Part shown: one piece after another, positions 13,386-54,038 of the stretch
How positions within the stretch are numbered: the stretch's first letter is position 1
How the letters are laid out: each line of letters begins with the position of its first letter
Made by a program: the position numbers and the translations under genes
Notes under the pieces: model-generated
What the model was told of the DNA's origin: nothing
Seen by the model: only the letters and a program-made list of their open reading frames with translations
Database searches by the model: none
Source of the DNA: a virus
Lineage: Duplodnaviria > Caudoviricetes
DNA: 62,651 nucleotides
Strand: one strand, 5' to 3'
IMG/VR virus record: IMGVR_UViG_3300031999_000017
Location: 1 to 62,651 of that record

Positions 13386-13393
13386 TATATTTG
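13386..13393 (+). promoter_or_regulatory. -7 element TATATTTG upstream of the portal gene
   Basis: Exact TAnnTTTG in the intergenic region; the -33 spacing is short (15). Confidence 0.5.
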
Positions 13394-13450
13394 GTGCAAA
13401 GAAAATCTCCGATGAAACCATTTCTTTTAAAAATAATCAAAAAAAACAAT

Positions 13451-13483
13451 CCACTATTTACATAAGTGATTAGTGGCTTTTTT
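13451..13483 (+). terminator. Terminator-like hairpin directly before the portal start
   Basis: CCACTA..TAGTGG stem followed by CTTTTTT. Confidence 0.45.
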
Positions 13484-13487
13484 ATAT

Positions 13488-29337: not shown

Positions 29338-29802
29338 ATGGAAAACGAAACAAAAGACATGATTGAAAAAATAGACGAGTTGGAGGTTGTTATGGCCGAA
29401 AACTTCCCTATTGTAAATTGTCCTTTGACACACAGGTTTACAGACGGATTGTATGTAAGAGAAATATTTATGCCTGCTGGAACTTTAATTACAAGTAAAA
29501 TACACAAAACACAGCATCAGTATTTTATATTAAAGGGCGCAGTTTCTGTATGGATTGATGAAGGAGAAGAAGTTTATTTGGAAGCTCCGTATATTGGAAT
29601 TACAGAGCCGGGAACAAGAAGGGTTTTATATATATGGGAAGATTGCATTTGGGCCACATCACACCCAAATCCAGACAACGAAACAATTGAAGAAATAGAA
29701 GAAAGGATAATAGAAAAGCACGATAATCCTTTGTTGCCAACTGAACTAAAAGAAAAATTAAAAGAAATAAATTCATTTATCTCTAAAACAATAACATCAT
29801 GA
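29338..29802 (+). CDS. Cupin-fold protein preceding the ejection genes
   Basis: HRFTDGLYVREIFMPAG..SKIHKTQH..G..V..APY...PGTRR..EDCIWATSH. Confidence 0.75.
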   Translation: MENETKDMIEKIDELEVVMAENFPIVNCPLTHRFTDGLYVREIFMPAGTLITSKIHKTQHQYFILKGAVSVWIDEGEEVYLEAPYIGITEPGTRRVLYIWEDCIWATSHPNPDNETIEEIEERIIEKHDNPLLPTELKEKLKEINSFISKTITS

Positions 29803-37800: not shown

Positions 37801-40800
37801 AACAGCGCAACAAAATACAACAAAAGGTATAAAAGTAGAGATACCGGGCCTTGAAGGACTTGATACTATATTAGTACAAGACGGAATGACTTATGAAGTA
37901 TATGAATTAACTACAGGCATGAAGTTGGCTGATACCGAAAACGCAATGTCTCCGGCTGAAGCAGTAAAGACAATAGCAAACAACATTCCTTCTGGAATGG
38001 CAGAAAAGATATTGAATAAAATATATCAAAGCGAAGAAGTAAATAGATATAAGATTGCAGGAGAAAAACCCGGAATAGCTATAATGAATGAAAGCCCTGC
38101 ATATAAAGCTTTTAGAGAACAAAAAATAGCAGAGGAAGAAAATAGACCATTTCTTCTTGATGAAAAAACAAGAAACGAGTTTTTAAATTTAGCAGAGCAA
38201 GCAAAAAGTGAAGGTCTTGATATTGCAGAAAAATCTTTAATTACTTTAGCTAATACAAGACAAGGCGCAATAGCAGAAACTCCATATACAATTGAAAGAG
38301 CAAAAGAATTATTAGAGAATTATAGAAAAAAGAAAGATTTAGAAGAAAGGAGATTACAAAATATTCCATATCCAGAAAAAGATATAGAAAAAAGAGAAAT
38401 AACCGAAGATGCACTAATTAGAGCAATGCAGCAAGGTTATAAAAGAGATAGATGGAATAAGCTGCCGGAAGAAATTAAAAAAGCAGCATTAGAGGCATGG
38501 AGAAAAGAGGCTGCTATTTATAATAAATACGGATATTATCCAAGCACATTTACTGGAGGCGAAACTTTTTTTGGAACTACGCTTACTTTAGGCAGGTATA
38601 TTGGAGCAACATTATCAAAAGACGCAAGCAAAAGAGAAGGAAAAATAAAAGAGGACTTGCGAATAATGCAAGAAAACTTCAAGCGCATAGACGAAATCTA
38701 TAAGCAAGAAGGATTTGATGTACTTAAAGCTCCAGAAGGACAAACCGCTAAGCCATTAACTATAACAGAGCCGGAGATACCAGTTGAAGCACAAAATGCA
38801 TTTAATAGAATTAAAAATAGACAAAAGAAGGCAGCAGCGCCGATAGAAACAGAAGAAGCAATAAAAGTAAATGATGAAGAAAAAATATTAACTCTTAAAG
38901 AAAAGAATAAAATAACTACAACAATAAATGAGCTAGAATTTGCAGACGATAACGGCAATACTAGGCATAGTGAATTAGTTAATACTATAAAATTATTAAA
39001 GAATCAAAATGAAATAAATAAATTACAAAAGCGTGAAAATTTCACTACAACAGAATTAATTACTCATTTATATTCAGATTTAATAGCCATACCTAAAGAA
39101 AACAGAACTAAAGAACATAATAACTTTATTAAAAAGGTTAATGAAATAGTAAGTTCTGAACAAGCAAAAACAGAAGTAGTAAATTTTGCTCCTTTTGATG
39201 CTGCCGGTGATTTAGCAGAAAACATAAAAAAATTATCTAGCACAGAACTTCCCCAACAAAAAACAATAGAACAACTAAGAGCAGATGAACAAGCAGAGTA
39301 CGATGCAATGCCCGATCCAAATGATAAAGTAGAGCGAAAAAGAATTTACGACAAGTACGATGAACTTATTACTCCTTTATTAAAAGAAACGCCAATAACA
39401 GAAACCACTTCCCCCGCTGTGGAACAGTCGCAAGCAGATTATTTTAAAGATCTAATTAAAGAAGAGAAGCAACAAAATAAAGAATTAAGAAAAAAATTTA
39501 ATGAACCCGACACTCTAGAGGTTGGAGATGTTGTTGTTGATAATGCAAATGGTCGGGGTGGCTACGAAAATAGAGTGATTAGAAATGTAATTAAAAATGA
39601 AAATGGAAGCTATAGAATAGTTTGGCAAAAAACCGATAATTACAAAAAAGGGGATGCGGGTATTTATGAAACTGTAATGACTAAAATGACTATTGGTAGT
39701 GAGCGCACTGGGTTTAATACTTTATGGTCAATGTCTGATGCCAAAGCGCATAATGAATCATTACCAGAAATACCAAAAGAAAAAAGAATTGGCTATATAA
39801 AAGAACCATATTTAGCCAAAATAAAAGCAGAAAGCAAACAAGCAGTTTTATCATCAGACGTAAGAACAACACCAGCAAAAAGTCTAAGCTTAGATGAACA
39901 AAGATTTCAAAATAGAAACGATGTAACTGGCAAGACATTGTTAGTTTCTGATATGATTTCTAACAGAGAAAAAAACCCGGAATCTTTTGATAGAGTAGAA
40001 ACCATTGCTAATAACTGGAAGAGCGCAGAGCAAGATCCAATACATGTATGGACTGATCCTAAAGATGGCAAGACCTATGTGTTAAGTGGACACCATAGGT
40101 ATGCAGCAGCTTTAAAAGCCGGCATCAAAGACGTAAAGACAATAGATAGAACAAAAGATTTTACAGAAGCCCAAGCGATAAAGTTTGCTAGAGAAGAGGC
40201 CAATACAAACAGAGCAATGGAAACTCCATTGGAAAGAGCAAAGGCATTAAGAATTAAAAGAGAAAGAGGTGATAGCAAAGAAGAAATTAATAAGTTTTTA
40301 TCTGCTGAAGGCAAAAACGCCAGTTACATAAACAATCTTTCTTCATTAAGCCCTAACGGCAAAACTATGAAAATGGTTGAGCAGTTCGGCAGTTCACCAG
40401 ATAAACAAACTCAAAAAGAATCAGAACAAAGAGCAGACTGGATAGGGGAAGCAAGAAGAACAATAGCTGGACTTACAGATGCGCATGAAAACGAAATGTT
40501 TGACTTTTTATTTGACAAAAACAAATCAAAAAGAGTAACAACAAAAGCCGATTTTTTACAAAAGGTAAGAGCATCAGTAAAACCATTAACACCCGAAGAA
40601 CCATTAAACATATCTCGCTTTGAATATAAAACACAAGGCGAAAGTGTTTATGAAGAAGAAGTAAATAGCATAAAGGATCAATTAGCCGAACGTCAAAACA
40701 AAATAAACGAAATAAACGGAAGGTTTAATAATCCAAATGCAAAAGATTATATATCTACTGAAAGCGCAAATTATGCAGAAGCAAGAAAAGTAGCAGATGC

Positions 40801-43800
40801 AAAAATCGCAGGCATAGAAGCTGAAAGAAAGGCGCTTCAAAAACAACTTGAAACGGTTTATTCTAACAAGAGCAAATATACTGGCGGCCCATCAAGCGGC
40901 ACATTGTTCTCATACAGAGAAACTCGTCCAGAGGATTTTGAAGATTACGTAGAAGGTGTTACCGACATGATAAATGAATCTCCAGAAAAAACTTTACAAC
41001 AAGTTCAAGCGGAGGTAGCAAATTATTTTGATGATCATACACCGGCATTTAAAAAGTTAATAGAGCAAGCTTACAATGAAGCTAAAAATAATGTTACTGG
41101 GCGAATAGTGAAAACTGAAGTTTTACAAAAGTTAAACAAGGGATTCTTAAAGATAGGCTCAACGATATTTGATAACGAGCAACAATTAATAGCTAAAGCA
41201 AGGCAACTTTCTGGATCAAGATTTAGCGCATTAGACCAAACCGGAAGAACGCCATTAGAATTTTCTAAAGATTTAGAAAAACAATATGGAGTAAAAGTTG
41301 ATTTTCTTGGAAGCTTGGAAGGCGGCGATTTGACTTTGTCAAGAATAGAAGTCCCAAAAGAACTTAGAGATAGCGGAATAGGCACTAAGGTTATGGAGGA
41401 TATTATTAACTATGCTGACAATAATGGCAAGAGAATAGTATTAACTCCATCAAAAGATTTTGGTGCTACATCAGTAGGTAGATTAAAAGATTTTTATAGC
41501 AGATTCGGATTTGTAGAAAATAAAGGAAAGAGCAAAGATTTTTCTACCAAAGAAGCTATGTATAGAAATCCGCAAACCCCCAAACAAACATTTGCAGAAA
41601 AATCACAGACAGCAGGATTTGAAACTAGAGATGGCAAGCCAATAGGATTTAATTACGATACAGACCAAGTAGCGAGGGAGCGCTTTGATTTTTCTAAATT
41701 GAAAAAAATAGGAGAAGGTAGCGATAGAATTGTATTTGATTTGGGTAACGGTAAAGTATTAAAGGTTGCTAAAACAGCAAGAGGACTTGAGCAAAACATT
41801 TATGAAGGAGATGGATATTTAGGTTTTATTCCAGATGTATATGAAAGAGGTTTGAATTATGTTGTAACAGATAACATACCAAGAATAAAAGGTACTGATT
41901 TAGTTCCAATACACGATATAGAAACTGGACAAGAAATAGGTACAGTTCCTGCCGCCGAAATGTTTAAAGATTTAAAGAAGTTTCATCAAGGAGATTTTGA
42001 TAGGCACAATTCAGAACTACAAACTATTCTTGAAAAATATGGCTTTGGAGATGTTAATGGATATGAATTACTTTATGGCGATTTCAATGCTGCAAGAAAC
42101 TGGGGATATAAAGATGGCAAACCATATCTTATAGATGCCGGAACTTTAGGCGGAGTTGAAATGCTTAAAAAATACCGCGGAGTGAAAAATTTATCTGATC
42201 CGGATTTCAGAAAAATATATTACGAAAGCAGACAATTAAAAAAACAGTATGTAGATGCTGATAAGTACACTAAGTTTCACTATGATGAAAATGGAGAAAT
42301 ACTTGGATTTACTCATGGCGGACACATCTATTTGAATGGACAAAAGATAACAGCTAAAACTACAATGGAAGAAGCTGGGCATATTTGGATTAACCACGCA
42401 AGAGAAACTAACTCTTCTTTATATAACGCCGGATTAAAAAAAGTATTAAACAGCCAGTATCTTAAAGATGTAAACGCAAGCGAATTTTATAGAAAAGAAG
42501 CCTTAAAGCAGGGTAAAGAAGGAAGCAAAGCGTATAACGATTACATGCAGGAAGAGGCTCTTGCTAAAGCTATATCTGACGAAGGTGCTAAGTTTGTTAC
42601 AGATGCACAAAGAATAAGCTTTAAAGACTGGGTAAGCAAAATGTGGGATAATGTAATGAAGGCATTTGGTATTAGAGATTTAACTCCAGACCAAGTGGCA
42701 AAACTTTCTTTAAAAGATTTTGCAAAAATGGCGGCAGCAGATGTATTTGCAGAAGGCAAGCCGGAAGCAAAAGCAGAGCCTGTTGTTCCAGAAGTAAAGC
42801 CAGCTCCTAAAGGACAAGAAAATGTAACCGTAACAACAACAGTCCAAAATCCAGAAGGCGAAAGAGTAACGAGAACAGAAACCATACCAACCAAAAATAC
42901 ATATTTATACGAAGGAACAGAAGAAAGACAAAGAGGCCTTTACACTCATTTGATGGAAGCTGATAGCGTTAGTCAAGAAACTAAAAATGCGCTAAAGAAA
43001 AATGGTATTACATATCAAGCAGCCAATAATGCACAAGCGGAATTGATGGCTGAAGATATATTAAAGACTTACAACACAAGAGATGCTTTACAAATAGCTA
43101 GAGGTTCTGATGTTCATGCTTCAGTAAGGTCTGCAATATTTGCTAAACTTATTGATGCCGCATACGTGAGAGAAATGAGAGCTAAGACACCGGAAGAAAA
43201 AATGAGGGCTGCGCAACAATGGAAAGATTTAGTTACAGAGTATGCAAACCAATTAACTGCTGGTGGTCAATTTACTGCTTATGCTGCTCATTTTTACAGA
43301 ACAAGTCCAATGGGATTTATAATGAAAGAAAATGCAGATAGAGAAGCAAGATTTAACGAGTGGTCTAAAGGAAAAGAAAAGACACTGGAAGAGTTGTGGA
43401 GCGAAATAAATGCTACTGCGGAAGGAAGGTCTTTGGTTAATTTAGAAGTAAAGAAAGCAAGAGAAGCAGAACGAGAAGCAGAACGAAAAGTTAGGGATAA
43501 AAAAATTGATGATTTCTTTGACAAGCTAAAAATAAATCCTAAAAATACTTATGGATTTATTATACCACTAGGCGTATTAAACCCGGTCATAGATACTATG
43601 AAGTTGGCTGTAAAAGCAGGCGACAGAGTTGCAGATGTAGTACAGCGAGCAATAGAACAAATATCAGATAAAGTAGGTAATAGCTGGGATAAAGAAGCAT
43701 TTAGAAAAGACTACGAAGAAATGTTAACTGGTGTAGTTGGTAAGGTTACAAAAGAATCTGATGAAGCAACGCAGTTAAGAAAAAGATTGGAAGGATTAGA

Positions 43801-46800
43801 AAAACAAATTGCAGACTTAAAAGAAAAGATAGGCAAGGGCGGAGAAGCCGGAAAGAAAAAAGAAATTAAATTTAGCGGCAACCCAGAAGTACAAAAGCTA
43901 ATAGAAGAAAGAGATCAGCTAAAAAAAGAAAATGAAGATTTATTAAAAAATGCTAAGGCAGGCAAGTATTCTGATGAAGCAAAAATAAAAGCCGCCAAAG
44001 AAGCTGTATTAAAATCCATTGAAGAAACAAAAAGAAAGATTATAGATAACGATTTGTCTATAAAGAAAAAAGAAGGCCCTACTGATGCAGAGCTTACCGC
44101 TCACAGAGAAGAACAAAAAAGATTGCGCAAAGAGTTAGAGGACATGAGAAAAGAAGCGCAAGAAGGCAAGTACGATCCAGTAGAAATGGCTAAGGCAGAA
44201 GCTAAAAGAAAACAGGCAAGGATAGACGAACTTAACAGAAGAATAAATGAAAATGATTTTAGTGCAGAGAAAGAAAAAATGCAGAAACAAAAAACTGCAT
44301 TAGATGATGAACTGGCGGAAACTAAAAGAAGATACGATGAAGCTAAAAAGCAATCGCCAGAATATAAAGAAAAAAAATCAAAACAATTTTTAGATAGATT
44401 AAGAAAAAGGCTTGAAGGATTAAGCGAGCGTCAAAGAAACGAAATAGTACAACGCAGCCTAAAGCAAATAACAGAAGCAGGCGGATTGAATTACGAAGAA
44501 TTTAGAAAGATAGTTGCCGAATCAATGGGCTATAAAGATTTAACTCCTGCTGAAGTTGCTGAAGTAGAAGCGCTTACTAAAACAATAAATTCGGTTGATG
44601 ATGCAGAAGATGCTTTAGTTGCTAATCCAACAGAAGCAAATTTAAAAGCACTTGATAAAGCAAGACAAGATGCTATGACAGCCGGATTGAAATTGTATAA
44701 CAAAACGCACAGGCAAGCAGACATTCCAAGAACATTTGGAAGCCTTATTACTGGATCTCTTTTAGGTACAGTTACACTTGGTAAAAACATAATACAAAAC
44801 GTAGTTATGCAGGCTACCATGAGAGTGCCAAAAGCATTAATTATACAACCATCTGAATCAGCATTAGTTTGGCTTGGAAATAGATTTTCTAATTCTAAAG
44901 CTTTTAATCCTTCTGCAAATATATTTACTGCTCAAAAAGGATATTTTAAAGGAGCGGGCAGAGGTATAAAAAGAGGCTGGTTTAATTTTTATAAAGGAAC
45001 ACAAGAAAGAGATTATTTTGGCAAAATTTCTTATCAATCTACATTAGCTCCACGCGTAGCAGTTAAAGATTTAAAATTGCATTTTAGTGGACAGAAACCA
45101 TTGACAAAAACAGAACTTACAGAAAGAATGATAAGAGCTACGCTTGGATGGCAGCCGGACTTTATTTTGAGAGCAATGGGTTTTGGCGATAGACCGTTTA
45201 GGTGGGCTGCCGAAGGCGCTGCTGCAATTCAAATTGCAAAACTTGAATTAAAACTTGCAGATGAAAATGAAATAAATGCTTTCATGTACGCTCCTAAAAA
45301 ATTTGCATATAAAACTTTAGTAGACCAAGGTATACCAAAAGATGAAGCTTTATTAAGGGCAGCTGAAATAGAAGATAGAATAATTAATGCAGGAAGCAAG
45401 GCGGTATTGGAAGAAGAAAATGTATTAAGCAGAATTTCTAAATATTTAGACCAAGGTCTTTCTACTAAAAAAGATGATTCTAAATTAAAACAAATTGCTT
45501 TTGGAGCAGCTTCAATACTCAAAACAGCTACTTTCCCATTTGTCAAAATACCTGCTAACGTATATTGGCAAATGTTTAAGGTAGCAAATCCAGAGGTTGC
45601 TTTATTGCAAGGTTTATATCATGGAGGAAAAGCTTTTATTGATGCTAAAGGTGGAGATAAAGCAGAAGCAAAAAAACAATATGAATATCTAAAGGATAAT
45701 TTAGCTACAGCAGTTTTAGGGTATGGCGTAATGATTGCGGTATCTAGCCTAGTTGCAAATGGGTATGTACGACCAGAAAATGATGATGAAACCAAAGCAA
45801 GAGAAAGAGAAGGAGAAAAGCCATACGAAAAAGGCAATCAGCTTAATTGGGGAAGAATGATGGGTGGTGAAGATTACTGGATAGACCTAAGTTGGTTTGG
45901 CCCAATTGGAACTACAATGGGAGTTCAAGCTAAAATTCAAGAACAAAACAGACGTAAACAATTAAAAGGAGAAACAGTAGACACAAGCTGGGCCGGAGAT
46001 TTTGAAGATAGATTTACCGTTGCTGAAATGGAATCATTAAATCAACTTGTCTACGATCAAGCCGGAAGAACAATAGGCGCTATAAAAGGTGGCGAAAACG
46101 GTTTAAAAGTTTGGGCAATAAATAGCATGAATACCGGAATGAACATAATTACTGGCGCTACTTATACTCAAATGAGTAAAGCAATGCTACCGGTAGTCCC
46201 AAGATTAAAAGCAGAGGGAGTTATGGAAGAATTTAAAAATAACCAGCAGCAAAGAAATGTTCTTTACAGAAGGTATAGCGGCATGCCGCCAACAAGAGTG
46301 TCTATATGGGGCGATCCAATTAAACAAGATACAAGTTTTTGGGGTGTAGTTAGTAACATGCTTGGCTTCCAAGAAACAGACGCACACCAGTTTGGTGCTA
46401 TTCTTTACTATGATGCACAAAGAACTGGAGACACAAGATTTTTCCCTACAGCAGTAACGGACAAGGTTACAGTAGACGGAGTAGAGATTAAATTAACTCA
46501 AGACCAAAAGGACGAGCTTGCTACATACATAGGACAGGCAAGAAAAATGTTAGTAGGATCATTTGTATATGATTGCGCTTTGCCTTACGAAGTACCAGTA
46601 AAAGGGCAGCCAGCTAAGAAATTGAAATATAATGACAAGGACATGACAGATGCCGACAAAATACATGCGCTTGAAAAGATTTATAATTATGGAAAAGAAA
46701 TAGGGTTTGCTCAATTTCAAAAAGCGCATAAAGAATTTGCTCCGGCAGAACTTACTCCTTCACAGCTTGGTGCTCAAATTAAAAGAGAAGTTTATGACGA

Positions 46801-46948
46801 GAAGTTTAAAATGGGCCTTGAAAAGGTAGTAAGAGCGAAAGGAAAAGAAATTCCATCGCCAACTAAGGAGGAAGAATTGCAGAAAGAAATAGACGAGCAG
46901 AACGAACAAATAAGAAAAATGAGGGATGAACAAGAAAATCCAGAATAA
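31868..46948 (+). CDS. Giant (5026 aa) polyvalent internal virion protein with ParB/Srx-like, GNAT, kinase and zincin-like domains
   Basis: VLSGHHRY; VPKELRDSGIG/FYSRFGF; GEGSDR/VLKVAK/GDF..RNWG/IDAG; EEAGH..EEALA. Confidence 0.85.
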   Translation: MTNEQPIQETEVIQTPTQTEAITEVLVDPIYKHKDGRIFTKNQLMTKMGLTEDRIKDGISKGMITQVGDTDDPTQQFKHKDGRIFSMKEFAAQGVTKDRVASGIEKGMIVPIEKKNQVATTKPPLETQKPEPPVSTTGAAAGASVSTTPPAEEKPVETPVATTPPPTPAVAPPPVEESKVDFSVAPAEKPAGIAQLQGPIEPVQSNIAVKNTDGQDQFAIITNPQAPLPSKEEAENYFNAPSKISDVNVFDNAAEYNKLKNAKTTKIVSSAGGGYETETPDEAAVKKANQIQQEGLDKKIDYDKVVKIGKQIDEYYTDPEENKKQKQDLSNLLLSGNKNQFDYYASQIAFNNELKKGLLGHFNTDETQRIIGNIVIPYQKLFETTTRTGPNGEQVIVAAQGDKIPGIQQVYNNLKNTLEIQNIENKEEILDNFRVIAARDIAFQAINHPEYVEADSLASTGLDENQIIGMRYVSSVVPEEIGKYRAALIPDEDIKDNWQAQTAKQQALKSLSQIGINIVSPLLNETLQDEIKNYNFNVNGLNKNYFYDQNPEDLKSFVTALNDQANSIDKLSKLSERLNTDYNNLNDDSKYGYANYYERQGLLQELTGQKHGFITQPLLKLGGAIYNTIATGIDIAKRPFLSDRDNEVNMATIMGKNIVLENELKVTQKNQMEKMPYAMTPEFEAAYNGIMNNKNLSDQDKENKVYDLIVDNPDGIQINPKGKESNLTLGSLWYGMTNLAADLAPYLAIEALTGGTATGGVAPSMLRKFSSSFIAAFTTGFHQSYLDAISRGSQNPYADAMRSATISSLAMATAGTPDIMRKIIGTKSVVGKMINKMTDKEILQVLRTEPKALSMFKKAYNFSGKVAEATWEGFKGGSKMVALTTAAQAINDEMYGDVRSLKEYVDGGKLEVLKFTLFGGITGGLTRGFTEKYGDLTKSVMFEAGANPKEFLEVLDLKIKNNEISKIDADQIRNNIELASKLYKSTYFGDSKGKPLDDASSRELLFLKMQEADIEKIITDRIPEELEKKLTNRLLNIKEKINDLRDGIEAPERKYRSIDVLTQGDIIAGDIIKNKEGIAGEVLQVNDNKTVVIKDIQTGEKFLWKPEDIAVKAPEPVAKTIPTFGPPTPRPTTPAPTTKQEEIVAPEPDSNIMVGDLIDKAGSYNGKKGVFYLDGQTVVFKEEGTSKEYDLGYINDIKDTPINQYGIQHEESVVSANEDGTFTIRGNTLRNGYSDPMQAINRDAEGNIMSVTLDMPNGTKRTFRGNVAEDLAYQIHLKEITKDNATAAEFEQFINEPEQQQQVNITAVPEATAEGTVAVNETVQRETLQPTVPATTEPIITGVEETELIRQAEPDARRMVDIEREFENRGYTIDTIEDNGIQIMDKDGEQVEGPEDLPKELRGLAAEYEALTAKLGDVSDVAREKALIEARKVTEVEAEVVEPETKQIERVTETRQIEVPKVNEVHVTRNTVNPIGVQGGNISSLHEDSRYIGTDLRQEYPELLKYNDGNLDTASAADLWKLAQLDHPNEYGFSVSRGAMQHEFETRGEQIFKELGFPTNPDALYKATYKGKIEKLSDILDHDNWWWSVADHADPVYDYNKELASKEAEIKQKETELSSITKKKDKDKANRLKWDIEDLQKEVELLKEGIAKGISRPMGDMPTSKQVELPKYTKTADKSKNPKSPNEVKWLPQFENRYGTTEVETRSFDNIQVTIEGSEDSGYKISANVLNEHGRVVIRHRYVSKKKYKTIEEAKSDTVRYVNEIIEKSEREDRQDIEMEQLQDRLPKGYTFERDYDYDKDEYEYELSKDGEIIFTVETPKEAENKINNKEYDAKQFGEIKLGEAKEIKEKTTETQRVFTAAELKENPDVLKENPEWYTVGYPNSFVGMSTNLAGLQGEGFNDPKVGDVVTFSGKEYVVRDIETGKKDPYKTSVSLLRVDKEGNILRQKDLSQKEQKEIASTEEEPTEIEAGDEIEFKTAQQNTTKGIKVEIPGLEGLDTILVQDGMTYEVYELTTGMKLADTENAMSPAEAVKTIANNIPSGMAEKILNKIYQSEEVNRYKIAGEKPGIAIMNESPAYKAFREQKIAEEENRPFLLDEKTRNEFLNLAEQAKSEGLDIAEKSLITLANTRQGAIAETPYTIERAKELLENYRKKKDLEERRLQNIPYPEKDIEKREITEDALIRAMQQGYKRDRWNKLPEEIKKAALEAWRKEAAIYNKYGYYPSTFTGGETFFGTTLTLGRYIGATLSKDASKREGKIKEDLRIMQENFKRIDEIYKQEGFDVLKAPEGQTAKPLTITEPEIPVEAQNAFNRIKNRQKKAAAPIETEEAIKVNDEEKILTLKEKNKITTTINELEFADDNGNTRHSELVNTIKLLKNQNEINKLQKRENFTTTELITHLYSDLIAIPKENRTKEHNNFIKKVNEIVSSEQAKTEVVNFAPFDAAGDLAENIKKLSSTELPQQKTIEQLRADEQAEYDAMPDPNDKVERKRIYDKYDELITPLLKETPITETTSPAVEQSQADYFKDLIKEEKQQNKELRKKFNEPDTLEVGDVVVDNANGRGGYENRVIRNVIKNENGSYRIVWQKTDNYKKGDAGIYETVMTKMTIGSERTGFNTLWSMSDAKAHNESLPEIPKEKRIGYIKEPYLAKIKAESKQAVLSSDVRTTPAKSLSLDEQRFQNRNDVTGKTLLVSDMISNREKNPESFDRVETIANNWKSAEQDPIHVWTDPKDGKTYVLSGHHRYAAALKAGIKDVKTIDRTKDFTEAQAIKFAREEANTNRAMETPLERAKALRIKRERGDSKEEINKFLSAEGKNASYINNLSSLSPNGKTMKMVEQFGSSPDKQTQKESEQRADWIGEARRTIAGLTDAHENEMFDFLFDKNKSKRVTTKADFLQKVRASVKPLTPEEPLNISRFEYKTQGESVYEEEVNSIKDQLAERQNKINEINGRFNNPNAKDYISTESANYAEARKVADAKIAGIEAERKALQKQLETVYSNKSKYTGGPSSGTLFSYRETRPEDFEDYVEGVTDMINESPEKTLQQVQAEVANYFDDHTPAFKKLIEQAYNEAKNNVTGRIVKTEVLQKLNKGFLKIGSTIFDNEQQLIAKARQLSGSRFSALDQTGRTPLEFSKDLEKQYGVKVDFLGSLEGGDLTLSRIEVPKELRDSGIGTKVMEDIINYADNNGKRIVLTPSKDFGATSVGRLKDFYSRFGFVENKGKSKDFSTKEAMYRNPQTPKQTFAEKSQTAGFETRDGKPIGFNYDTDQVARERFDFSKLKKIGEGSDRIVFDLGNGKVLKVAKTARGLEQNIYEGDGYLGFIPDVYERGLNYVVTDNIPRIKGTDLVPIHDIETGQEIGTVPAAEMFKDLKKFHQGDFDRHNSELQTILEKYGFGDVNGYELLYGDFNAARNWGYKDGKPYLIDAGTLGGVEMLKKYRGVKNLSDPDFRKIYYESRQLKKQYVDADKYTKFHYDENGEILGFTHGGHIYLNGQKITAKTTMEEAGHIWINHARETNSSLYNAGLKKVLNSQYLKDVNASEFYRKEALKQGKEGSKAYNDYMQEEALAKAISDEGAKFVTDAQRISFKDWVSKMWDNVMKAFGIRDLTPDQVAKLSLKDFAKMAAADVFAEGKPEAKAEPVVPEVKPAPKGQENVTVTTTVQNPEGERVTRTETIPTKNTYLYEGTEERQRGLYTHLMEADSVSQETKNALKKNGITYQAANNAQAELMAEDILKTYNTRDALQIARGSDVHASVRSAIFAKLIDAAYVREMRAKTPEEKMRAAQQWKDLVTEYANQLTAGGQFTAYAAHFYRTSPMGFIMKENADREARFNEWSKGKEKTLEELWSEINATAEGRSLVNLEVKKAREAEREAERKVRDKKIDDFFDKLKINPKNTYGFIIPLGVLNPVIDTMKLAVKAGDRVADVVQRAIEQISDKVGNSWDKEAFRKDYEEMLTGVVGKVTKESDEATQLRKRLEGLEKQIADLKEKIGKGGEAGKKKEIKFSGNPEVQKLIEERDQLKKENEDLLKNAKAGKYSDEAKIKAAKEAVLKSIEETKRKIIDNDLSIKKKEGPTDAELTAHREEQKRLRKELEDMRKEAQEGKYDPVEMAKAEAKRKQARIDELNRRINENDFSAEKEKMQKQKTALDDELAETKRRYDEAKKQSPEYKEKKSKQFLDRLRKRLEGLSERQRNEIVQRSLKQITEAGGLNYEEFRKIVAESMGYKDLTPAEVAEVEALTKTINSVDDAEDALVANPTEANLKALDKARQDAMTAGLKLYNKTHRQADIPRTFGSLITGSLLGTVTLGKNIIQNVVMQATMRVPKALIIQPSESALVWLGNRFSNSKAFNPSANIFTAQKGYFKGAGRGIKRGWFNFYKGTQERDYFGKISYQSTLAPRVAVKDLKLHFSGQKPLTKTELTERMIRATLGWQPDFILRAMGFGDRPFRWAAEGAAAIQIAKLELKLADENEINAFMYAPKKFAYKTLVDQGIPKDEALLRAAEIEDRIINAGSKAVLEEENVLSRISKYLDQGLSTKKDDSKLKQIAFGAASILKTATFPFVKIPANVYWQMFKVANPEVALLQGLYHGGKAFIDAKGGDKAEAKKQYEYLKDNLATAVLGYGVMIAVSSLVANGYVRPENDDETKAREREGEKPYEKGNQLNWGRMMGGEDYWIDLSWFGPIGTTMGVQAKIQEQNRRKQLKGETVDTSWAGDFEDRFTVAEMESLNQLVYDQAGRTIGAIKGGENGLKVWAINSMNTGMNIITGATYTQMSKAMLPVVPRLKAEGVMEEFKNNQQQRNVLYRRYSGMPPTRVSIWGDPIKQDTSFWGVVSNMLGFQETDAHQFGAILYYDAQRTGDTRFFPTAVTDKVTVDGVEIKLTQDQKDELATYIGQARKMLVGSFVYDCALPYEVPVKGQPAKKLKYNDKDMTDADKIHALEKIYNYGKEIGFAQFQKAHKEFAPAELTPSQLGAQIKREVYDEKFKMGLEKVVRAKGKEIPSPTKEEELQKEIDEQNEQIRKMRDEQENPE

Positions 46949-46976: not shown

Positions 46977-47519
46977 ATGCCATTTTCACAAAATTTTTCA
47001 GTAGCGCAAACACCTGCAAATCCTGCATATGTAATCATTACAGATACAAGTACACCTCCAAATGATTATGCAACATACAATATAGATTCCAGAAGGATTT
47101 ATATCAAAGATAATTTTGGAAACTTTATAGTGCCAGCGGGAACTACAACTAATTATATTAATTGGCCATTACTTGACAATCCAATATCATTAAATATTTT
47201 AACTCAAGACCTTGCAGTAAACATAGAAGTTGAATGGAGAGATTCTACTGCTCTGCCAATTAATCAAGTTCTTTATAGTTTAGATAATAATTATTGTTTT
47301 TCTGAATACAACAAGCAATTTTTATATTACTTGATTCAACTTCAAGCACACAATTACAACATTATTCAAGACAATAATTATTGGGGTAATGTAGGAATAT
47401 TTTGGGCAAATATTATTGGAGCAATCAATGCAGTTGAAATAGGGGATGATATTGCCGCATCACAAGCGTGTTTGAATAGAGCAACATTTATGGCACAAAA
47501 CCAAGCTAATTTCTTTTAA
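46977..47519 (+). CDS. Putative tail hub / structural protein
   Basis: First gene of the fibre cluster. Confidence 0.6.
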   Translation: MPFSQNFSVAQTPANPAYVIITDTSTPPNDYATYNIDSRRIYIKDNFGNFIVPAGTTTNYINWPLLDNPISLNILTQDLAVNIEVEWRDSTALPINQVLYSLDNNYCFSEYNKQFLYYLIQLQAHNYNIIQDNNYWGNVGIFWANIIGAINAVEIGDDIAASQACLNRATFMAQNQANFF

Positions 47520-47521
47520 TT

Positions 47522-48061
47522 ATGGCGCAATTAAGCATAAATGAAATAATTGAATTAGGGGACATTAGTGTTCCTCTTTCAGCTAATTACCAAGCAAAAG
47601 GGAATTTGTTTGGTAAGAGATTAGCATTTACTGCACCGCAAACAATTGCATTAGTTACAGATGCTTTAAGATGGCAATGGGCATCGTTCCCAGATATTTC
47701 AGAGATAGCAGCAACATCTACAATAACAATAGATACTATTGGAGATACAGGTCAAACTATAACAGTAACAGTTAATGATCCATTACAAGGTACGGTTACG
47801 CTAGGCAGTTATACTTTAACGGATAGCGATACTACTCCAGATATTATTGCTACTAACTTAGCTGCATCATTGGGGTTAAATACAAATCATTTTAGTATAT
47901 CTGTAGCAACCAATTTAATAACATTAACCGCTCCCGCTGGAGATGGCGCACTTATAAATGGCATATCACCAATTTGCACAATTACTCAAGTAGGGTTTTT
48001 GTCAACACAATTAAATGATAGAATTATCACACAAAACAACTTAAACATTATAACACAATAG
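47522..48061 (+). CDS. Putative tail adaptor protein
   Basis: Thr-rich beta domain; C-terminal LSTQ...IITQ....IITQ repeat. Confidence 0.6.
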   Translation: MAQLSINEIIELGDISVPLSANYQAKGNLFGKRLAFTAPQTIALVTDALRWQWASFPDISEIAATSTITIDTIGDTGQTITVTVNDPLQGTVTLGSYTLTDSDTTPDIIATNLAASLGLNTNHFSISVATNLITLTAPAGDGALINGISPICTITQVGFLSTQLNDRIITQNNLNIITQ

Positions 48062-48063
48062 TT

Positions 48064-48771
48064 ATGGCAAATATTCAAATAAATCAATTACCAGCAGCTA
48101 CATTACCATTAAGCGGTACTGAATTATTACCAGCAGACCAAGGCGCTGCAACAGTTCAAATAGCCGTTACCGATATAGTTAGTTTAGTAAACTCTAATGC
48201 TGTATTAAATACATTAGGAACACCACAAGTAATATCTGATATTTTAGCCAACAGACCGGGTAGCACAATGATTGGAACTATATTTGTATCAACAGATAGT
48301 CCTTATACAATTTATCAATATAATGGCGCAGCTTGGAATACTCTTGCTGGTACTTTGCAATCTATAAGTAGTAGCACACTTGATGTTGATCTTGCTGCTC
48401 CACAAGCCCCTGTAATAAACTTGCCATATACAAGATATTTAGCAACAGTAAGTCAATCGGGAGCTTCAGATCCTACACTTAATGTATTAGAAAACACAAC
48501 ACCATTTGTATTTACATTTACAAGGGGATCACAAGGCTTTTACGGTTCAAATACAATAACTCAAGATATTACAAAAATTGCAGTTAGGTGTACTCCGGGA
48601 GGAACGTGTCCAGTTGGAATATGTATATTTGTTGATATAGTAACAAGCGGCCCAACTTTATCATTAACATTAGCAAGTTTTGCTAATTATGTATCTGGCC
48701 CAATATCTTCATATGGTGCATATGATGGACTTTTGATAAATGCTCTGTTAGAAATTTTAATTTATCCATAA
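48064..48771 (+). CDS. Short tail fibre / spike
   Basis: N-terminal IQINQLPAA..LSGTE....Q..T fibre anchor motif. Confidence 0.65.
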   Translation: MANIQINQLPAATLPLSGTELLPADQGAATVQIAVTDIVSLVNSNAVLNTLGTPQVISDILANRPGSTMIGTIFVSTDSPYTIYQYNGAAWNTLAGTLQSISSSTLDVDLAAPQAPVINLPYTRYLATVSQSGASDPTLNVLENTTPFVFTFTRGSQGFYGSNTITQDITKIAVRCTPGGTCPVGICIFVDIVTSGPTLSLTLASFANYVSGPISSYGAYDGLLINALLEILIYP

Positions 48772-48780
48772 TAAATAAAA

Positions 48781-49200
48781 ATGCCACTACAAGTAACAAC
48801 AACACCATTTACCGGAGGCGTAACTTCTTTTACTAATGTAGGAGCAAGAGGCGTTGCTAATTATTTATATTGGCTATGCGGTAAATTTCAAATAGAAGGA
48901 CAATATATAATAATGGGAGTTGGAGGTGGTACTGTACTTCCTATAAATCCAACCACGTTCCCTAATCCAATAGAATTTGAGGTAACTGGAACATCATATA
49001 TGATAAACGGACAAAGCACTAAAACAATAACAGAATTTAAAAATTATAATTTATTGTTTGTTAGAAATAATGTTCCTCAATCAATAATAAATATGGGAGG
49101 CGGATCATCTTATTTTTCTTGGAATAAAATAACAGGAGTATTTACTTGTTATCCTGCGGCAGTAAGTGGAGAGTTATTCCAATTATACCCTTTTATTTAA
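48781..49200 (+). CDS. Putative tail structural protein
   Basis: In the fibre cluster; GGG hinge. Confidence 0.55.
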   Translation: MPLQVTTTPFTGGVTSFTNVGARGVANYLYWLCGKFQIEGQYIIMGVGGGTVLPINPTTFPNPIEFEVTGTSYMINGQSTKTITEFKNYNLLFVRNNVPQSIINMGGGSSYFSWNKITGVFTCYPAAVSGELFQLYPFI

Positions 49201-49205: not shown

Positions 49206-52175
49206 ATGAAAAAAGTAGTTTTAGTTTTGATTTTGATTTTTGGATTATTGACTGGGTACTCCCAACAGTACCCGGTCAATCAATTCATTGGAGCGCCTAA
49301 TACATTGGTAACTTCTAAAGGAGCATTTAAAACAGATAGTGCATTAATACTTCCTGTATTTACTGATACTTCAAAAGCCAACATTTCCCCATATATAAAA
49401 AACTATGCAGGAACTTTAATCAGAGTTGGCGATAGTTTATATGTTAGAAGCAATGATATTAGTAAATGGTTATTGCTTGGAAGCGGTGGTGGTGGTGGAT
49501 TAGATTCCATTACTGCTAATAATGGATTGACTGCAAATACAACAAGTAATGTACAATTAGGTGGTACATTAATTCAACCAACTTCCATATTAACAAATGC
49601 TAATGAATTTACTATTGAAAGAGGAGCAAATGGCAACACATTGCAAGTAGTAAACTCAAGCACAGGAGTTAGTAATGATAAAACAGCTTTATACGCAACT
49701 AGTACGGATGGAAATGCTGGGGAGTTCTTAGCAGGAAATACATTAATTGCAAATAATGCTGTACAGGGAGTAGTAAAAATAACAAGAACTACAAGCCTTC
49801 CGCCTTCCCCTAACTATAATGAAATAGGCGGAGCTATTGATTTTATTAATCCAACTGTCAATGGTCTTTTTTCTCCAGCTATTGCATACACAAACAGAAT
49901 AGCATCAAGATGGGAAAACTCGGTTTCAGATCCAATAAATAGCTCTTATGCAAAATCTAGGTTTGAATTATACGGATATAAAAACGGTGCAATAAGAAAC
50001 TTAGCGATGGTAGGTGATGGTAGATTAATTTTAGACCAATATGGTGCAGGTTTGTTTGAAGGAACACCTGTGTATAAATTAGGAGTTGATGCAAGTGGAA
50101 ACGTAATAGAAGATACAACAAGTAGTGGCGGTGGTGGTACTGTTACATCAGTTGCTACTGGATATGGTTTGTCTGGGGGAACTATTACTAATACAGGTAC
50201 ATTGATTGCTGATACAAGTGTAAGCGGTTTGTCTGGGAAGTATTTGCGATTAACTGATACGGCTACTATGCTTACTCCATACACACGAGGTTCTGGACTA
50301 GCTACAAGGGTTGCATTTTGGGGTGGTTCTCGTTCATTAACGTATACATCTAATATAGCAATAGATGCTAGTAACCCAGCATTTCCAGCATTACAAGTTA
50401 GTGATGGTACAGCGCAAAGGTCTTTTTTAACTCCAACCTCTAGCGGCACTCAAAATACTGCTAATGATTATGCTATTACAACTACAAGCGGCTCTACTCC
50501 GTTTTTTAATGCTCATAATGGAACTACTAATAGAGAGAGTAGGCTTTATCCTACAAAAATTCAGTTTACAAACTTATCTACTAGTGGATTCGTTAATCTA
50601 AATAGTCCAATATCTTATAATAATACAAATGATACTTTGCCAAATGCCTCTGGAGTATTAGCAATATCAGTAAACAATGTAAAAGCAGATAGTTCTGGTA
50701 ATATTACATTAACAACAGGTGGCACAGGAACAGTTACAAGTATTACTCAAGGATATGGAATTACTAATTCCCCTAACCCAATAGTATCAACAGGTACAGT
50801 AACAGTAGATACTAGTACAGGTGGATTGTCTGGGAAGTACTTGCGATTAACAGATAGTAGCTCTATGCTTAGTCCATATCTCAGAAAGATAGACACTACT
50901 AATAGATTTGTTAACAATATTTCCCGAACACTAGGAAAAGATTCAATAATATTTAATATTGGTTCTACAAGATATGCGATAAAGGATAGTGTGGGAACTA
51001 ATCCAGCTCCTGTAGGTTATTATGGGGCGTTCTCTGATACTTTAAATCAATTAGCAACTGTAATTAATACAGGCTATCCTATGGAATTTAAAGTAAATGA
51101 TATTACGCCAAATGGTGTTACAATCGCAAGTAATTCAAGAATTACATTTGCAAATTCAGGCATTTATAATTTACAATGGTCTGCTCAATTTACATCAAGC
51201 GATAATGCTGAAGCTGATGTTTCTATTTGGTTGCGTAAAAATGGGACAGATGTTGCAGGTAGTAGGGGATTAGTCGCAGTACCAAAAAAAATAGGTTCAA
51301 CTAATGGTCATGCTTTACCGTCATGGAATTTTGTGTTAAATGTAGCATCGGGGGAATATTATGAATTTGTATGGAGTACCGCAAATTTAAATGTCTTTAT
51401 TGAAGCATTGCCTATAACTGCATTTTCTCCATCAACGGCATCAGCAATTCTAACTGTTACTCAACAAAGTGGGATAATGGCAGGTACAGGCATTACTGCT
51501 ATAAATTCCCTTACAGGAGCAGCACAGACAATAGTTGCAGGCACAAGTGGGACTGATTTTGCAGTATCTTCTACAGGAACTACACATACCTTAAATCTCC
51601 CAGATGCATCTGCATCTAACAGAGGTGCATTAACATCAGCTAATTGGACTACATTCAATAATAAAATAGGAGCATCAGATACCTCTGTATTTCAAAGAAA
51701 AAACATTGCTGCTTATTCGTTTCAAGCTAACAATACAGCATCGTCAGCTAATGTAACTACTCAGACTTTTACAGATGTTGCAGAACAGAGTATGGCTAAT
51801 ACAATATCATTTACAGCGGGAGCTGCCCCAACGGGATTAACATCAGCAAACTACTCATGGACACAGGTGGGTAAAACAGTAACTGTAAACTTCAATGCTA
51901 TATATACTACACCCGGGACAACTATTAGTTCATTATTTTTTAATTTACCATCTGATTTACCTGCTCCATTAGTGCCTACGGGTTGGAGTGGCGCAAGTGC
52001 ATATCTTTATAATGGCTCGGCAGCAGTATTCACAACATCTATCTTACAAAATAATATTTTAGCTACATCATTTATTAGAAGAAATGCAGCGAATACAGCG
52101 TATGAATTAGGATATAATGGTGCATCTGCAACAGCAAGAGGATTTAAGTTTACCTTAATTTACAAAGCACAATAA
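49206..52175 (+). CDS. Tail fibre / adhesin-like protein with N-terminal Sec signal peptide
   Basis: MKKVVLVLILIFGLLTGYS-Q; GTVTS repeats; GIYNLQWSAQF beta-sandwich; YSWTQVGKTV tip. Confidence 0.7.
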   Translation: MKKVVLVLILIFGLLTGYSQQYPVNQFIGAPNTLVTSKGAFKTDSALILPVFTDTSKANISPYIKNYAGTLIRVGDSLYVRSNDISKWLLLGSGGGGGLDSITANNGLTANTTSNVQLGGTLIQPTSILTNANEFTIERGANGNTLQVVNSSTGVSNDKTALYATSTDGNAGEFLAGNTLIANNAVQGVVKITRTTSLPPSPNYNEIGGAIDFINPTVNGLFSPAIAYTNRIASRWENSVSDPINSSYAKSRFELYGYKNGAIRNLAMVGDGRLILDQYGAGLFEGTPVYKLGVDASGNVIEDTTSSGGGGTVTSVATGYGLSGGTITNTGTLIADTSVSGLSGKYLRLTDTATMLTPYTRGSGLATRVAFWGGSRSLTYTSNIAIDASNPAFPALQVSDGTAQRSFLTPTSSGTQNTANDYAITTTSGSTPFFNAHNGTTNRESRLYPTKIQFTNLSTSGFVNLNSPISYNNTNDTLPNASGVLAISVNNVKADSSGNITLTTGGTGTVTSITQGYGITNSPNPIVSTGTVTVDTSTGGLSGKYLRLTDSSSMLSPYLRKIDTTNRFVNNISRTLGKDSIIFNIGSTRYAIKDSVGTNPAPVGYYGAFSDTLNQLATVINTGYPMEFKVNDITPNGVTIASNSRITFANSGIYNLQWSAQFTSSDNAEADVSIWLRKNGTDVAGSRGLVAVPKKIGSTNGHALPSWNFVLNVASGEYYEFVWSTANLNVFIEALPITAFSPSTASAILTVTQQSGIMAGTGITAINSLTGAAQTIVAGTSGTDFAVSSTGTTHTLNLPDASASNRGALTSANWTTFNNKIGASDTSVFQRKNIAAYSFQANNTASSANVTTQTFTDVAEQSMANTISFTAGAAPTGLTSANYSWTQVGKTVTVNFNAIYTTPGTTISSLFFNLPSDLPAPLVPTGWSGASAYLYNGSAAVFTTSILQNNILATSFIRRNAANTAYELGYNGASATARGFKFTLIYKAQ

Positions 52176-52351
52176 TGAAACACATCAGACAGATTAGTAG
52201 TGTAGAGACAAATACCTATACGGTTGTGAAAACTGAAGATTGGAATCAGCCACTTGAGCAGCATCCATCTGTAGTTGAACATCCAGAATTATTTGAAGTA
52301 TCTGAACAAGAATTGCCATCTTATATTCAGTATGTAATTTATCAATCGTAA
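52175..52351 (+). CDS. Small protein after the fibre, possible fibre assembly factor (58 aa)
   Basis: TAATG coupling to the fibre stop; translated by hand. Confidence 0.6.
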   Translation: MKHIRQISSVETNTYTVVKTEDWNQPLEQHPSVVEHPELFEVSEQELPSYIQYVIYQS

Positions 52352-52489: not shown

Positions 52490-52672
52490 ATGAAAACACT
52501 ATATTCAGATGCAATAGATTGGGTAAGTATAAAATTAAATGCAATTTGCCTAGTTGGATTTTTTACTGGTTCAAGTGCAATAGCCACATTAACAATAATA
52601 GCTACCCTTACCACTATAGCTTATAACTCAATAAGAATTTATAAAGAAATTAAAAACCCAAAAAAATACTAA
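52490..52672 (+). CDS. Holin/antiholin-like membrane protein
   Basis: Hydrophobic core and basic C-terminus; in the lysis cluster. Confidence 0.6.
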   Translation: MKTLYSDAIDWVSIKLNAICLVGFFTGSSAIATLTIIATLTTIAYNSIRIYKEIKNPKKY

Positions 52673-52673: not shown

Positions 52674-52928
52674 ATGAAATCATCTTTTTTTACATTAAAT
52701 TCAAAGGACTTTACTAGAGGCCTATTTATTGCGGTACTATCTGCTGTAGTTACGTTTTTATACACTTGCATCCAAGCTGGTAATTTTGTTATTGATTGGA
52801 GTGCAATTGGTATGGCAGCTCTCTCGGCTGCATTGGCTTACATTACTAAAAACCTTTTAACCAATTCTAATGATGAATTGCTGAAAAAGGAGGTGTCTGC
52901 CAGCAGTTCAGAAAATCCAAATACATAA
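52674..52928 (+). CDS. Holin (2 TM)
   Basis: KDFTRGLFIAVLSAV..IDW..IG..ALSAALAYITKNLLTN. Confidence 0.75.
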   Translation: MKSSFFTLNSKDFTRGLFIAVLSAVVTFLYTCIQAGNFVIDWSAIGMAALSAALAYITKNLLTNSNDELLKKEVSASSSENPNT

Positions 52929-52930: not shown

Positions 52931-53527
52931 ATGAAATCAAATAGTCTGGTTTGCGCTTTTTTAATAGTTGTATTATCCATATCCTACTCTTGCAACATTC
53001 AAAAGAGGGTTGAAAAACAACAGAAAATATTTGATAATATTGGACGCAAGTGGTTGAAATCACACCCTTGCGCCAATGATAGTTTTACTATCTATGTCCC
53101 CGGAAAGAGAGATTCCATACCCATTGAAATTCCAATAATAATTATTGATAGCAATTATACGAAAAAACAGTTGGACAGCTTGCGTATTGAAATGCAGAAA
53201 ATATATTCAACTCCAACAGAAATATGCACTGAAGAAATGGCTAGAGCGTATAAGCTCGGATACAATACCGCAGAGAAAAAATGGAAAGATAAACTCGGTC
53301 AAATAAAAGTTGCCGTTCCTGTAGTTGATACGCTAAAAATAACACTTAAAGATAAGCAGGCGATACAACTGCTTCAAGATGATTTAGCTACCAGTAAAGA
53401 AAATATAAACAGATTAACCATAGATGGAATGAATTGCGCAAGCAAGAAGGATAAATGGTGGTTGTGGTTTGTAATAACCTTTATTTTGTTGAGTGGTAGC
53501 CTTTACTTTAATCTGAAAAAATTATAA
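52931..53527 (+). CDS. Unimolecular spanin-like lipoprotein
   Basis: Lipoprotein signal ending ISYS-C plus C-terminal TM WWLWFVITFILLSGSLYF. Confidence 0.65.
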   Translation: MKSNSLVCAFLIVVLSISYSCNIQKRVEKQQKIFDNIGRKWLKSHPCANDSFTIYVPGKRDSIPIEIPIIIIDSNYTKKQLDSLRIEMQKIYSTPTEICTEEMARAYKLGYNTAEKKWKDKLGQIKVAVPVVDTLKITLKDKQAIQLLQDDLATSKENINRLTIDGMNCASKKDKWWLWFVITFILLSGSLYFNLKKL

Positions 53528-53530: not shown

Positions 53531-53980
53531 ATGGCTTTAGGAAAAGATGCTTTAAAAGTTGCAGCCACACAAGTCGGCAAGTGCGAGAATCCGCTCGGCT
53601 CTAACTGGGGCACGCCAGTAAAAGACTATTTAGCTTCGGTGTGTATAGGTTTCCCTGCTTCTTGGTGTATGGCTTTTGTATATTGGTGCTTTGAACAAGC
53701 GAAAAAGGAAGGGCAGAATCCGCTGATTAAAACTGGAGGCGTATTGATGGCTTGGAATAAAGCTGACAAGAAATATAAGGTAACAGAGTGTCAAGCAGGA
53801 GATATATTTATAATGGACTTCGGTAAGGGGCTTGGACATACCGGCATAGTTGAAAAAGTAGATGAAAATTTCATATACACAATAGAAGGGAATACTAATG
53901 ATAGCGGCAGCAGGGAGGGTATAATGGTTTGCCGAAAGCAAAGACTGAAGAAGAAGATAAAAGGGTATTTAAGATATTAG
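53531..53980 (+). CDS. CHAP-domain endolysin
   Basis: SWCMAFVYW, GHTGIV, TIEGNTN. Confidence 0.9.
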   Translation: MALGKDALKVAATQVGKCENPLGSNWGTPVKDYLASVCIGFPASWCMAFVYWCFEQAKKEGQNPLIKTGGVLMAWNKADKKYKVTECQAGDIFIMDFGKGLGHTGIVEKVDENFIYTIEGNTNDSGSREGIMVCRKQRLKKKIKGYLRY

Positions 53981-54005: not shown

Positions 54006-54038
54006 AAAAAAACCCCCATGTTTCTACATGAGGGTTTT
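54006..54038. terminator. Terminator between the convergent late and right-arm operons
   Basis: AAAACCC.CATGT-TTCT-ACATG.GGGTTTT. Confidence 0.7.

Follow-up and report, generated by a model that had tools for sequence, protein, structure and literature searches.

We analysed a 62,651-b stretch of DNA, the IMG/VR virus record IMGVR_UViG_3300031999_000017 (hereafter the window), whose late region carries on the + strand, at positions 49206-52175, an open reading frame (ORF) for a 989-aa tail-fibre-type protein that begins with the hallmarks of a signal peptide for the Sec export pathway. The record has an estimated completeness of 93% and a G+C content of 34.5%, and its source is a short-tailed phage of Bacteroidota. 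PHROG matches in the window comprise a terminase, a portal, several 'virion structural proteins', a DNA primase/polymerase and a NinG/Rap nuclease, and the portal is 24-26% identical to those of the cultured Bacteroidota podophages phi38:1, phi40:1 and phi18:3 of Cellulophaga, Panino of Maribacter and 'elemo' of Flavobacterium. The late genes of the + strand run from head and tail genes through a 5026-aa ORF and four small leaderless genes (46977-49200) to the fibre, and continue 3' of it with a 58-aa gene, two small membrane proteins, a protein with a lipobox and a C-terminal transmembrane stretch, and a CHAP endolysin. Between 46500 and 53980 the + strand shows no terminator-like site.

The ATG of the fibre gene lies 5 nt past the stop codon of the upstream gene 48781-49200, and its product begins with MKKVVLVLILIFGLLTGYS followed by QQYPVNQF. 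The first 19 residues (49206-49262, + strand) read as a Sec/signal peptidase I leader, with MKK as the n-region, VVLVLILIF as the core, G-Y-S at -3 to -1, a predicted cut before Q20, and residues 2-15 modelled as a helix by AlphaFold2. Leaders were scored with a home-made heuristic that combines a basic n-region, an uncharged hydrophobic 10-mer and small residues at -3 and -1; in the window only 3 of the 43 ATG-initiated ORFs of at least 100 aa passed it, namely the fibre, the lipobox protein mentioned above (spanin-like) and the gene at 7778-8182. Two other export classes were considered and rejected. The protein has no Cys in its 989 aa, and thus no lipobox Cys, which excludes a lipoprotein, and the whole protein has no NCBIfam or Pfam match to a C-terminal sorting domain at E<=0.01 and therefore no recognisable type IX C-terminal domain, so that it was also dismissed as a type IX secretion cargo.

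The leader is conserved far beyond this phage. Of 8000 candidates scored in a word-indexed search, 389 were relatives, and the 20 of them with a common N-terminus share M1, K2, Q20 and 18 more invariant columns within the first 88 residues. When phmmer was run with the mature N-terminal module only (residues 20-97, leader excluded), 369 clusters made at 50% identity were retrieved at E<=1e-3, with 48 at E<=1e-10. Among the best 150 of these 369 clusters, 135 members pass the leader heuristic, with [ASGC]Q at the expected spot in 134 of the 135, and it is to these 135 that the following conservation figures refer. M1 is conserved in 99%, K2 in 90% and K3 in 72%, and positions 4-12 show just 27-44% identity yet are strongly hydrophobic, with a mean hydropathy of 2.8-4.0. 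Position +1 is Gln in every member (135/135), position -1 is A/S/G/C/T in 134, position -3 is S/G/A/V/C/T/L in 135, position -2 is F or Y in 81, and the leader is 18-21 aa long in 132. The leader thus appears to vary in sequence with its function kept, which is the manner in which signal peptides evolve. No demonstrable full-length leaderless member was found among the 15 proteins that failed the heuristic: nine are gene calls that start within the module or leader (P0124, P0135, P0145, P0152, P0189, P0193, P0210, P0224, P0242), three are calls over-extended 5' of an internal MKK leader (P0186, P0236, P0246), two have evident leaders that the heuristic rejected (P0123, P0147), and one (P0179) is apparently a spurious match.

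Conservation also extends past the cut site, with Q20 present in 100%, P23 in 86%, Q26 in 92% and G29 in 93% of the members. Because residues 20-33 are conserved as protein, a start downstream of the hydrophobic stretch is not credible, and no internal start column is conserved in the 135 sequences. The start itself was compared across six related loci (the window, L002, L003, L004, L014 and L015); in all six the distance from the upstream stop to the fibre ATG is -4 to +7 nt, with MK or MR at the start of the product, and with both leader and start spacing conserved we rejected a wrong choice of start. An earlier note, made from the letters of this DNA, had read the ATG at 49206 as opening a typical Bacteroidota signal peptidase I leader with Gln at +1, had proposed conservation of the leader in homologues as a check, and had named a start beyond the hydrophobic stretch as the finding that would overturn it; the family-wide marks bear out the first two points and speak against the third.

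For Bacteroidota Sec/signal peptidase I substrates, the part of Bochtler et al. (2018, PMC5837995) drawn on here describes Gln at +1 as a phylum-specific 'Q-rule'. The substrates in that account are cellular proteins, whereas here the substrate would be a phage late-operon fibre. Taking the leader statistics together, we regard export of the fibre as well supported, and cleavage of its leader by signal peptidase I as strongly inferred.

Always directly behind the leader comes the conserved mature N-terminal module (residues 20-97, QQYPVNQ...W88...G; 49263-49496, + strand), in which D54 is conserved in 100% and T55, R81 and W88 each in 99% of the 135 members, and which is modelled over residues 50-95 with a predicted local distance difference test (pLDDT) score of 87-94. 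The module has no match in Pfam, PHROG or NCBIfam, the whole fibre likewise has no family match in Pfam, PHROGs or NCBIfam, and a Pfam search with seven relatives of the fibre returned stray weak matches only. Among 185,579 species genomes the patterns used found no close relative of the module, a result that leaves room for distant cellular relatives; the single-protein query found one viral contig and the alignment query three. A supposed likeness of the module to the leaderless neighbour 48064-48771 was dropped, as BLASTP finds nothing, and a complex prediction of module residues 20-100 with the upstream 139-aa protein scored 0.00, which says nothing either way. In L014, the fibre (11423-14956, running into the contig end) contains internal stretches of the type ...GFLMPTMS...GLMVYDTD...FYFNGNNW; judged by eye, this likeness points to a further, internal occurrence of the module's small sheet element.

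The remainder of the protein was described by the earlier note as a fibre with GTVTS shaft repeats, a beta-sandwich and a tip domain, and these elements were found. The shaft (residues 98-569; 49497-50912, + strand) is marked in sequence and alignment by Gly runs, most of the D-S/T sequons, and two GTVTS-type repeats at residues 311-335 (50136-50210) and 506-532 (50721-50801). The AlphaFold2 model, built from 82 alignment rows with a mean pLDDT of 61.8, is confident for the leader helix (about 85), residues 50-95, a jelly-roll at 570-750 and a sandwich at 860-989; shaft residues 100-560 fall below 50, as expected because a trimeric shaft was modelled as a monomer. The jelly-roll is a C1q/TNF-like head (50913-51455, + strand; pLDDT up to 97), for which Foldseek against the PDB returned ExsFA (7r1m, E 1e-7), BclA, C1q (1pk6), 4-1BBL and the receptor-binding protein of phage 1358. 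The C-terminal tip beta-sandwich (51783-52175 including the stop codon, + strand) is modelled at pLDDT 89-95 and is common to the relatives P0003 and P0024 at 54-62% identity. Matches in BFVD were uncultured phage proteins labelled C1q, collagen repeat, lambda Stf repeat or S74 chaperone.

In GenBank phages, tblastn matched 13 records that cover only residues 576-779, i.e., the head, and neither of the two head-carrying proteins examined (0/2), both from phages of Proteobacteria, has a leader; the first 307 residues gave a single weak match, outside the module. Full-length metagenomic fibres without a leader, whose N-termini are of several other kinds, share the shaft and head modules of the window protein at 41-69% identity. 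Because its modules recur in leaderless fibres, the window protein is, by sequence comparison, an ordinary mosaic fibre but for its front end, and probably a modular, trimeric host-recognition protein of the tail-fibre type.

The O-glycosylation system of Bacteroidota, in the part of PMC12871550 concerned with its substrates, acts on non-cytoplasmic proteins only, at a motif of Asp, Ser/Thr and then mostly L/I/V/T/A/S; the substrates carry D-(S/T)-(L/I/V/T/A/S/M) motifs, and the window fibre likewise carries 16 of them. In that review the word 'phage' occurs 0 times, and no phage protein is mentioned as glycosylated by this system. We counted a broad form of the motif, D[ST][LIVTASM], and an older strict form, D[ST][AILVMT]. 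The 16 broad motifs of the fibre compare with 4.6 expected, and none of 2000 shuffles gave as many; Ser or Thr follows 16 of its 35 Asp residues. The exported spanin-like protein has 3 against 0.7 expected, and the 21 leaderless window proteins together have 44 against 40.8 expected. Within the fibre the motifs lie at residues 44-611 with one more at 825, leaving head and tip nearly motif-free. In 126 of the 135 members the residue after D54-T55 (100% and 99% conserved) is T, A, S, I, L or V.

The same tendency was seen across relatives. Among all collected proteins of at least 400 aa that start with Met, those with a leader (n=151) carry the motif at 2.57 times expectation, those with no hydrophobic N-terminus (n=46, a few fragments included) at 1.05 times, and ambiguous cases (n=19) at 2.26 times. 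Over 15 aligned homologous segments there were 37 motifs in the window fibre and 11 in its leaderless partners, with the same query sites counted repeatedly; three further pairs whose subjects are N-terminally unclear (4 vs 6, 6 vs 4 and 5 vs 5) were dropped from this comparison. What is new here is that enrichment of the host O-glycosylation motif, as counted in sequence, tracks the leader across homologous fibres, and periplasmic glycosylation of the fibre by the host is plausible on this basis.

In the textbook view of tailed phages, all virion parts fold and attach in the cytoplasm. The g3p of filamentous phages is a receptor-binding protein that has a Sec signal peptide and is assembled outside the cytoplasm; these phages have no tail and are extruded through the membrane as they assemble, and the g3p fold is unrelated to that of the window fibre. 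The closest parallel among cultured tailed phages is offered by Cellulophaga phage phi18:3 (Pachyviridae; KC821620.1), whose gp085, gp086 and gp087 carry the GenBank label 'structural protein, experimental MS/MS' (tandem mass spectrometry). All three have a leader with Gln at +1 and are encoded just 5' of the lysis genes, whereas none of the nine other MS/MS structural proteins of phi18:3 examined has a leader. Like the window fibre, they are large podophage proteins in the fibre position near the lysis genes; unlike it, they have a different N-terminal module and no detectable similarity in sequence. All five of gp079-083 in phi46:3 have leaders, with structural labels that come from similarity only.

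In the literature searched we found no paper that comments on the leaders of the phi18:3 and phi46:3 proteins, and none in which export of tail fibres is described for a tailed phage. In the portions of two papers that touch on the subject, phage DGR (diversity-generating retroelement) targets are reported as lacking signal peptides (PMC6199706), and 2 and 1 signal peptides are counted in two Bacteroides phages with the genes unnamed (PMC5723332); PMC12386605 and PMC12309495 do not bear on the question. Outside phages, the mosaic adhesive trimer (MAT) fibres of Bdellovibrio, as outlined in the relevant part of Caulton et al. (2024, PMC10769870), are phage-fibre-like mosaic trimers that are exported and displayed by a Gram-negative cell for glycan recognition; their likeness to the window fibre is one of description, and they are proteins of a bacterial predator, not of a phage late operon.

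The reading that we favour, although we hold its chances of being right or wrong to be about evenly balanced, is that the fibre is made as a Sec precursor, matures in the periplasm and docks onto particles at lysis. The layout suggests that the gene would be transcribed late, in the same-strand run from tail genes to lysis genes. Judging from the family-wide conservation of the site, the 19-residue leader would guide the unfolded chain through SecYEG, signal peptidase I would cut after Ser19, and Gln20 would be converted to pyroglutamate by the host glutaminyl cyclase. The chain would then fold and trimerise in the periplasm and, as the motif enrichment suggests, probably receive O-glycans from the host at D-S/T sites, which cluster in the module and shaft. 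With the envelope breached by holin, endolysin and spanin, the fibre would meet the particles built in the cytoplasm and, by analogy with phi18:3, dock through its conserved mature N-terminal module. It is because the leader-bearing gp085-087 of phi18:3 are annotated as MS/MS virion proteins that we favour late joining to the particle, and virion incorporation at lysis is, by that analogy, the most likely fate; before lysis the periplasmic pool of fibres could also bind envelope receptors as a second role. The earlier note had offered three fates for an exported fibre, namely addition to virions at lysis, display that masks the receptor, and use as a cell-surface adhesin; its premise of export holds up well given the conserved leader, and the three fates are not separated by our results. 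Somewhat more tentatively, we propose assembly in two compartments, in which heads and tails would be built in the cytoplasm and Sec-exported, pyroglutamate-capped fibres, coated with host O-glycan in the periplasm, would snap on only once lysis proteins have breached the inner membrane. The N-terminal module would then be a docking plug, and the glycan coat could protect the shaft from proteases or from host glycan-directed defences.

Several points weigh against docking at lysis and against the glycosylation that may accompany it. The proposal gives no account of how a periplasmic trimer would meet particles efficiently. The phi18:3 proteins on which the analogy draws are not homologous to the fibre (BLASTP E 0.43 and 0.48, with gp087 outside the comparison), and among the cultured phages of the collection none has the N-terminal module. 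Related phages use leaderless fibres (phi38:1 gp085 and gp087, and elemoE), and the window has leaderless fibre candidates as well, at 48064-48771 and at 29338-29802 (PHROG short tail fibre); because such candidates exist in relatives and window alike, the virion need not depend on the leader-bearing fibre. The fibres of phi38:1 and of Flavobacterium phage elemoE are modular like that of the window, but the docking segment at their N-terminus (MARIK...) has no leader, and their assembly is presumably cytoplasmic. As for the motif, the strict form is less enriched in the fibre (10 vs 3.7 expected, 4 of 1000 shuffles), and the leaderless 1317-aa structural protein of the window is also somewhat enriched in it (10 vs 4.8, 17 of 1000 shuffles; broad form, 10 vs 5.5, 94 of 2000). 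The Mann-Whitney p of 4e-13 for the comparison of leader-bearing with other proteins is inflated because the relatives are phylogenetically related, the motifs of the fibre are not independent because some sit in repeated shaft units, and D54-T55 may be conserved for structural reasons because a short helix begins there in the model.

The most serious competing explanation, unlikely in our judgement though one to be reckoned with, is that the protein is exported and never becomes part of the virion. It would stay in the periplasm or envelope or be freed at lysis, and would bind or mask the receptor glycan or prevent re-adsorption, sparing superinfecting phages or the cell's own progeny from loss on the infected cell and its debris, or else act as an adhesin. 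Export is supported equally well under this explanation, the leaderless fibre candidates could serve the virion in its place, and the gene abuts the lysis cassette; in relatives, moreover, the neighbouring leader-bearing genes include one for an enzyme-like protein with FN3 and arabinanase-like repeats that could act on the envelope. However, virion-docked fibres are laid out in this way, with a strongly conserved N-terminal module followed by distal modules that are exchanged freely; the gene sits within the late structural run at 5 nt spacing and not among the early genes, and phi18:3 proteins that are analogous and have leaders bear the annotation of virion proteins by MS/MS. Phage exclusion proteins of the Llp/Cor type are, furthermore, small lipoproteins with a lipobox Cys at +1, whereas the fibre has no Cys.

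The remaining alternatives concern the leader itself. That it stays uncleaved is improbable: its long hydrophobic core is modelled as a helix at pLDDT of about 85, but the -3/-1 rule holds in 134-135 of the 135 members and Gln occupies +1 in all of them, a pattern that would be pointless without cleavage and cyclisation, and at 18-21 aa the leaders fall short of the usual anchor length. We rate just as low, or a shade lower, the production of two forms, one exported and one leaderless and cytoplasmic from an internal start, the latter entering the virion. Alternative starts occur in some phage tail enzymes, and TTG and GTG codons are present within the first 40 codons; there is, however, no Met between residue 1 and about residue 268, and the conservation of residues 20-33, with no conserved internal start column, tells against it. 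Least probable of all is an artefact, with the start misassigned or the N-terminus hydrophobic by chance. The frame is indeed open from a TTG at 49146, but the extension overlaps the upstream gene, and the explanation is already contradicted by conservation of M1-K2-K3 and of the spacing in 6/6 loci and the 135 relatives.

Returning to docking at lysis, a large fibre family, 369 clusters by the N-terminal module alone, appears to be built for Sec export and periplasmic modification. If so, completion of the particles would, in many Bacteroidota phages, take place outside the cytoplasm or at lysis and draw on the host signal peptidase, glutaminyl cyclase and probably the O-glycosylation machinery for the fibres, which bears on the timing of lysis and assembly. 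Leaders and motifs would mark the host phylum in host-range prediction, and structural work or engineering would call for expression of such fibres in a Bacteroidota periplasm instead of the E. coli cytoplasm. Leaderless homologues with the same modules offer a direct experimental handle by contrast.

The surroundings of the fibre gene are similar in its relatives. In 6/6 loci the fibre is the last large gene between the tail genes and the lysis cassette, and the four small leaderless tail-region genes upstream of it (46977-47519, 47522-48061, 48064-48771 and 48781-49200, + strand) are syntenic in 6/6. The fibre is in each case preceded by a protein that ends in a '...GELFQLYP' domain, carried in the window by 48781-49200; the window, L002 and L014 have it as a free-standing domain, whereas in L003, L004 and L015 it is joined to the second small protein at the N-terminus. 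The fused genes (L003 9463-9996, L004 9469-9996 and L015 9502-10077) comprise the N-terminal 55 residues of 47522-48061 and the whole of 48781-49200, and in the window, L002 and L014 these two genes are separate, with a short fibre of 235-314 aa inserted between them. The second and fourth small tail genes thus offer a clear example of one gene split, or two genes fused, around an inserted fibre.

Downstream, the coupled small gene that the earlier note had pointed out is indeed present at 52175-52351 (+ strand), where it encodes a leaderless, acidic protein of 58 aa and overlaps the fibre stop by one base (TAATG). It is 58-71% identical to its counterparts in L003 and L004; L002 and L015 have no ORF of at least 55 aa in this slot, and no match was found in the family libraries or the ESM Atlas. 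Between the fibre and the lysis genes, three of the relatives encode extra leader-bearing proteins, namely one of 1409 aa with FN3 and arabinanase-like repeats in L003 (13959-18188), two of 302 and 534 aa in L004 (12677-13585 and 13590-15194), and two of 220 and 154 aa in L015 (14675-15337 and 15339-15803). Because of these extra proteins 3' of the fibre, the exported set is better described as a variable cassette than as a single gene.

The lysis cassette of the window, directly downstream of the fibre and the 58-aa gene, begins with two small, holin-like membrane proteins (52490-52672 and 52674-52928, + strand). The spanin-like protein (52931-53527, + strand; 198 aa) combines a lipobox-type leader, LSISYS followed by C and picked up by the leader heuristic, with a C-terminal transmembrane stretch seen in its sequence, which is the layout of a one-piece spanin. 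Its gene is flanked by the two holin-like genes and by the CHAP endolysin (53531-53980, + strand; Pfam CHAP E 8.6e-15, PHROG endolysin E 4.3e-20), and the same layout is found in L003. Just past the endolysin gene, where the + strand late genes and the - strand genes converge, a 13-bp GC-rich hairpin with a T run lies on the - strand at 54009-54038; it probably serves these - strand genes as their terminator and may act in both directions.

Elsewhere in the late region, a single + strand ORF of 5026 aa (31868-46948) takes up 24% of the genome, its sole Pfam match being a weak GNAT stretch (E 6e-5), and in relatives ORFs of at least 2300-2980 aa occupy its slot. The product may be cargo for ejection, of the kind found in crAss-like phages. 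The 1317-aa structural protein (25129-29082, + strand) has an N-terminus homologous to a PHROG of virion proteins (E 4e-66), and its C-terminus gives a weak, sub-threshold match to the crAss 'muzzle' (E 1.9e-4), which would link the tail of this phage group to crAss-like tails. Outside the late operon, a 75-aa lipoprotein (1131-1358, + strand; LSIAS followed by C) and a 134-aa exported protein (7778-8182, + strand; SFS followed by QEV) are candidates for early functions that act on the envelope, e.g., exclusion.

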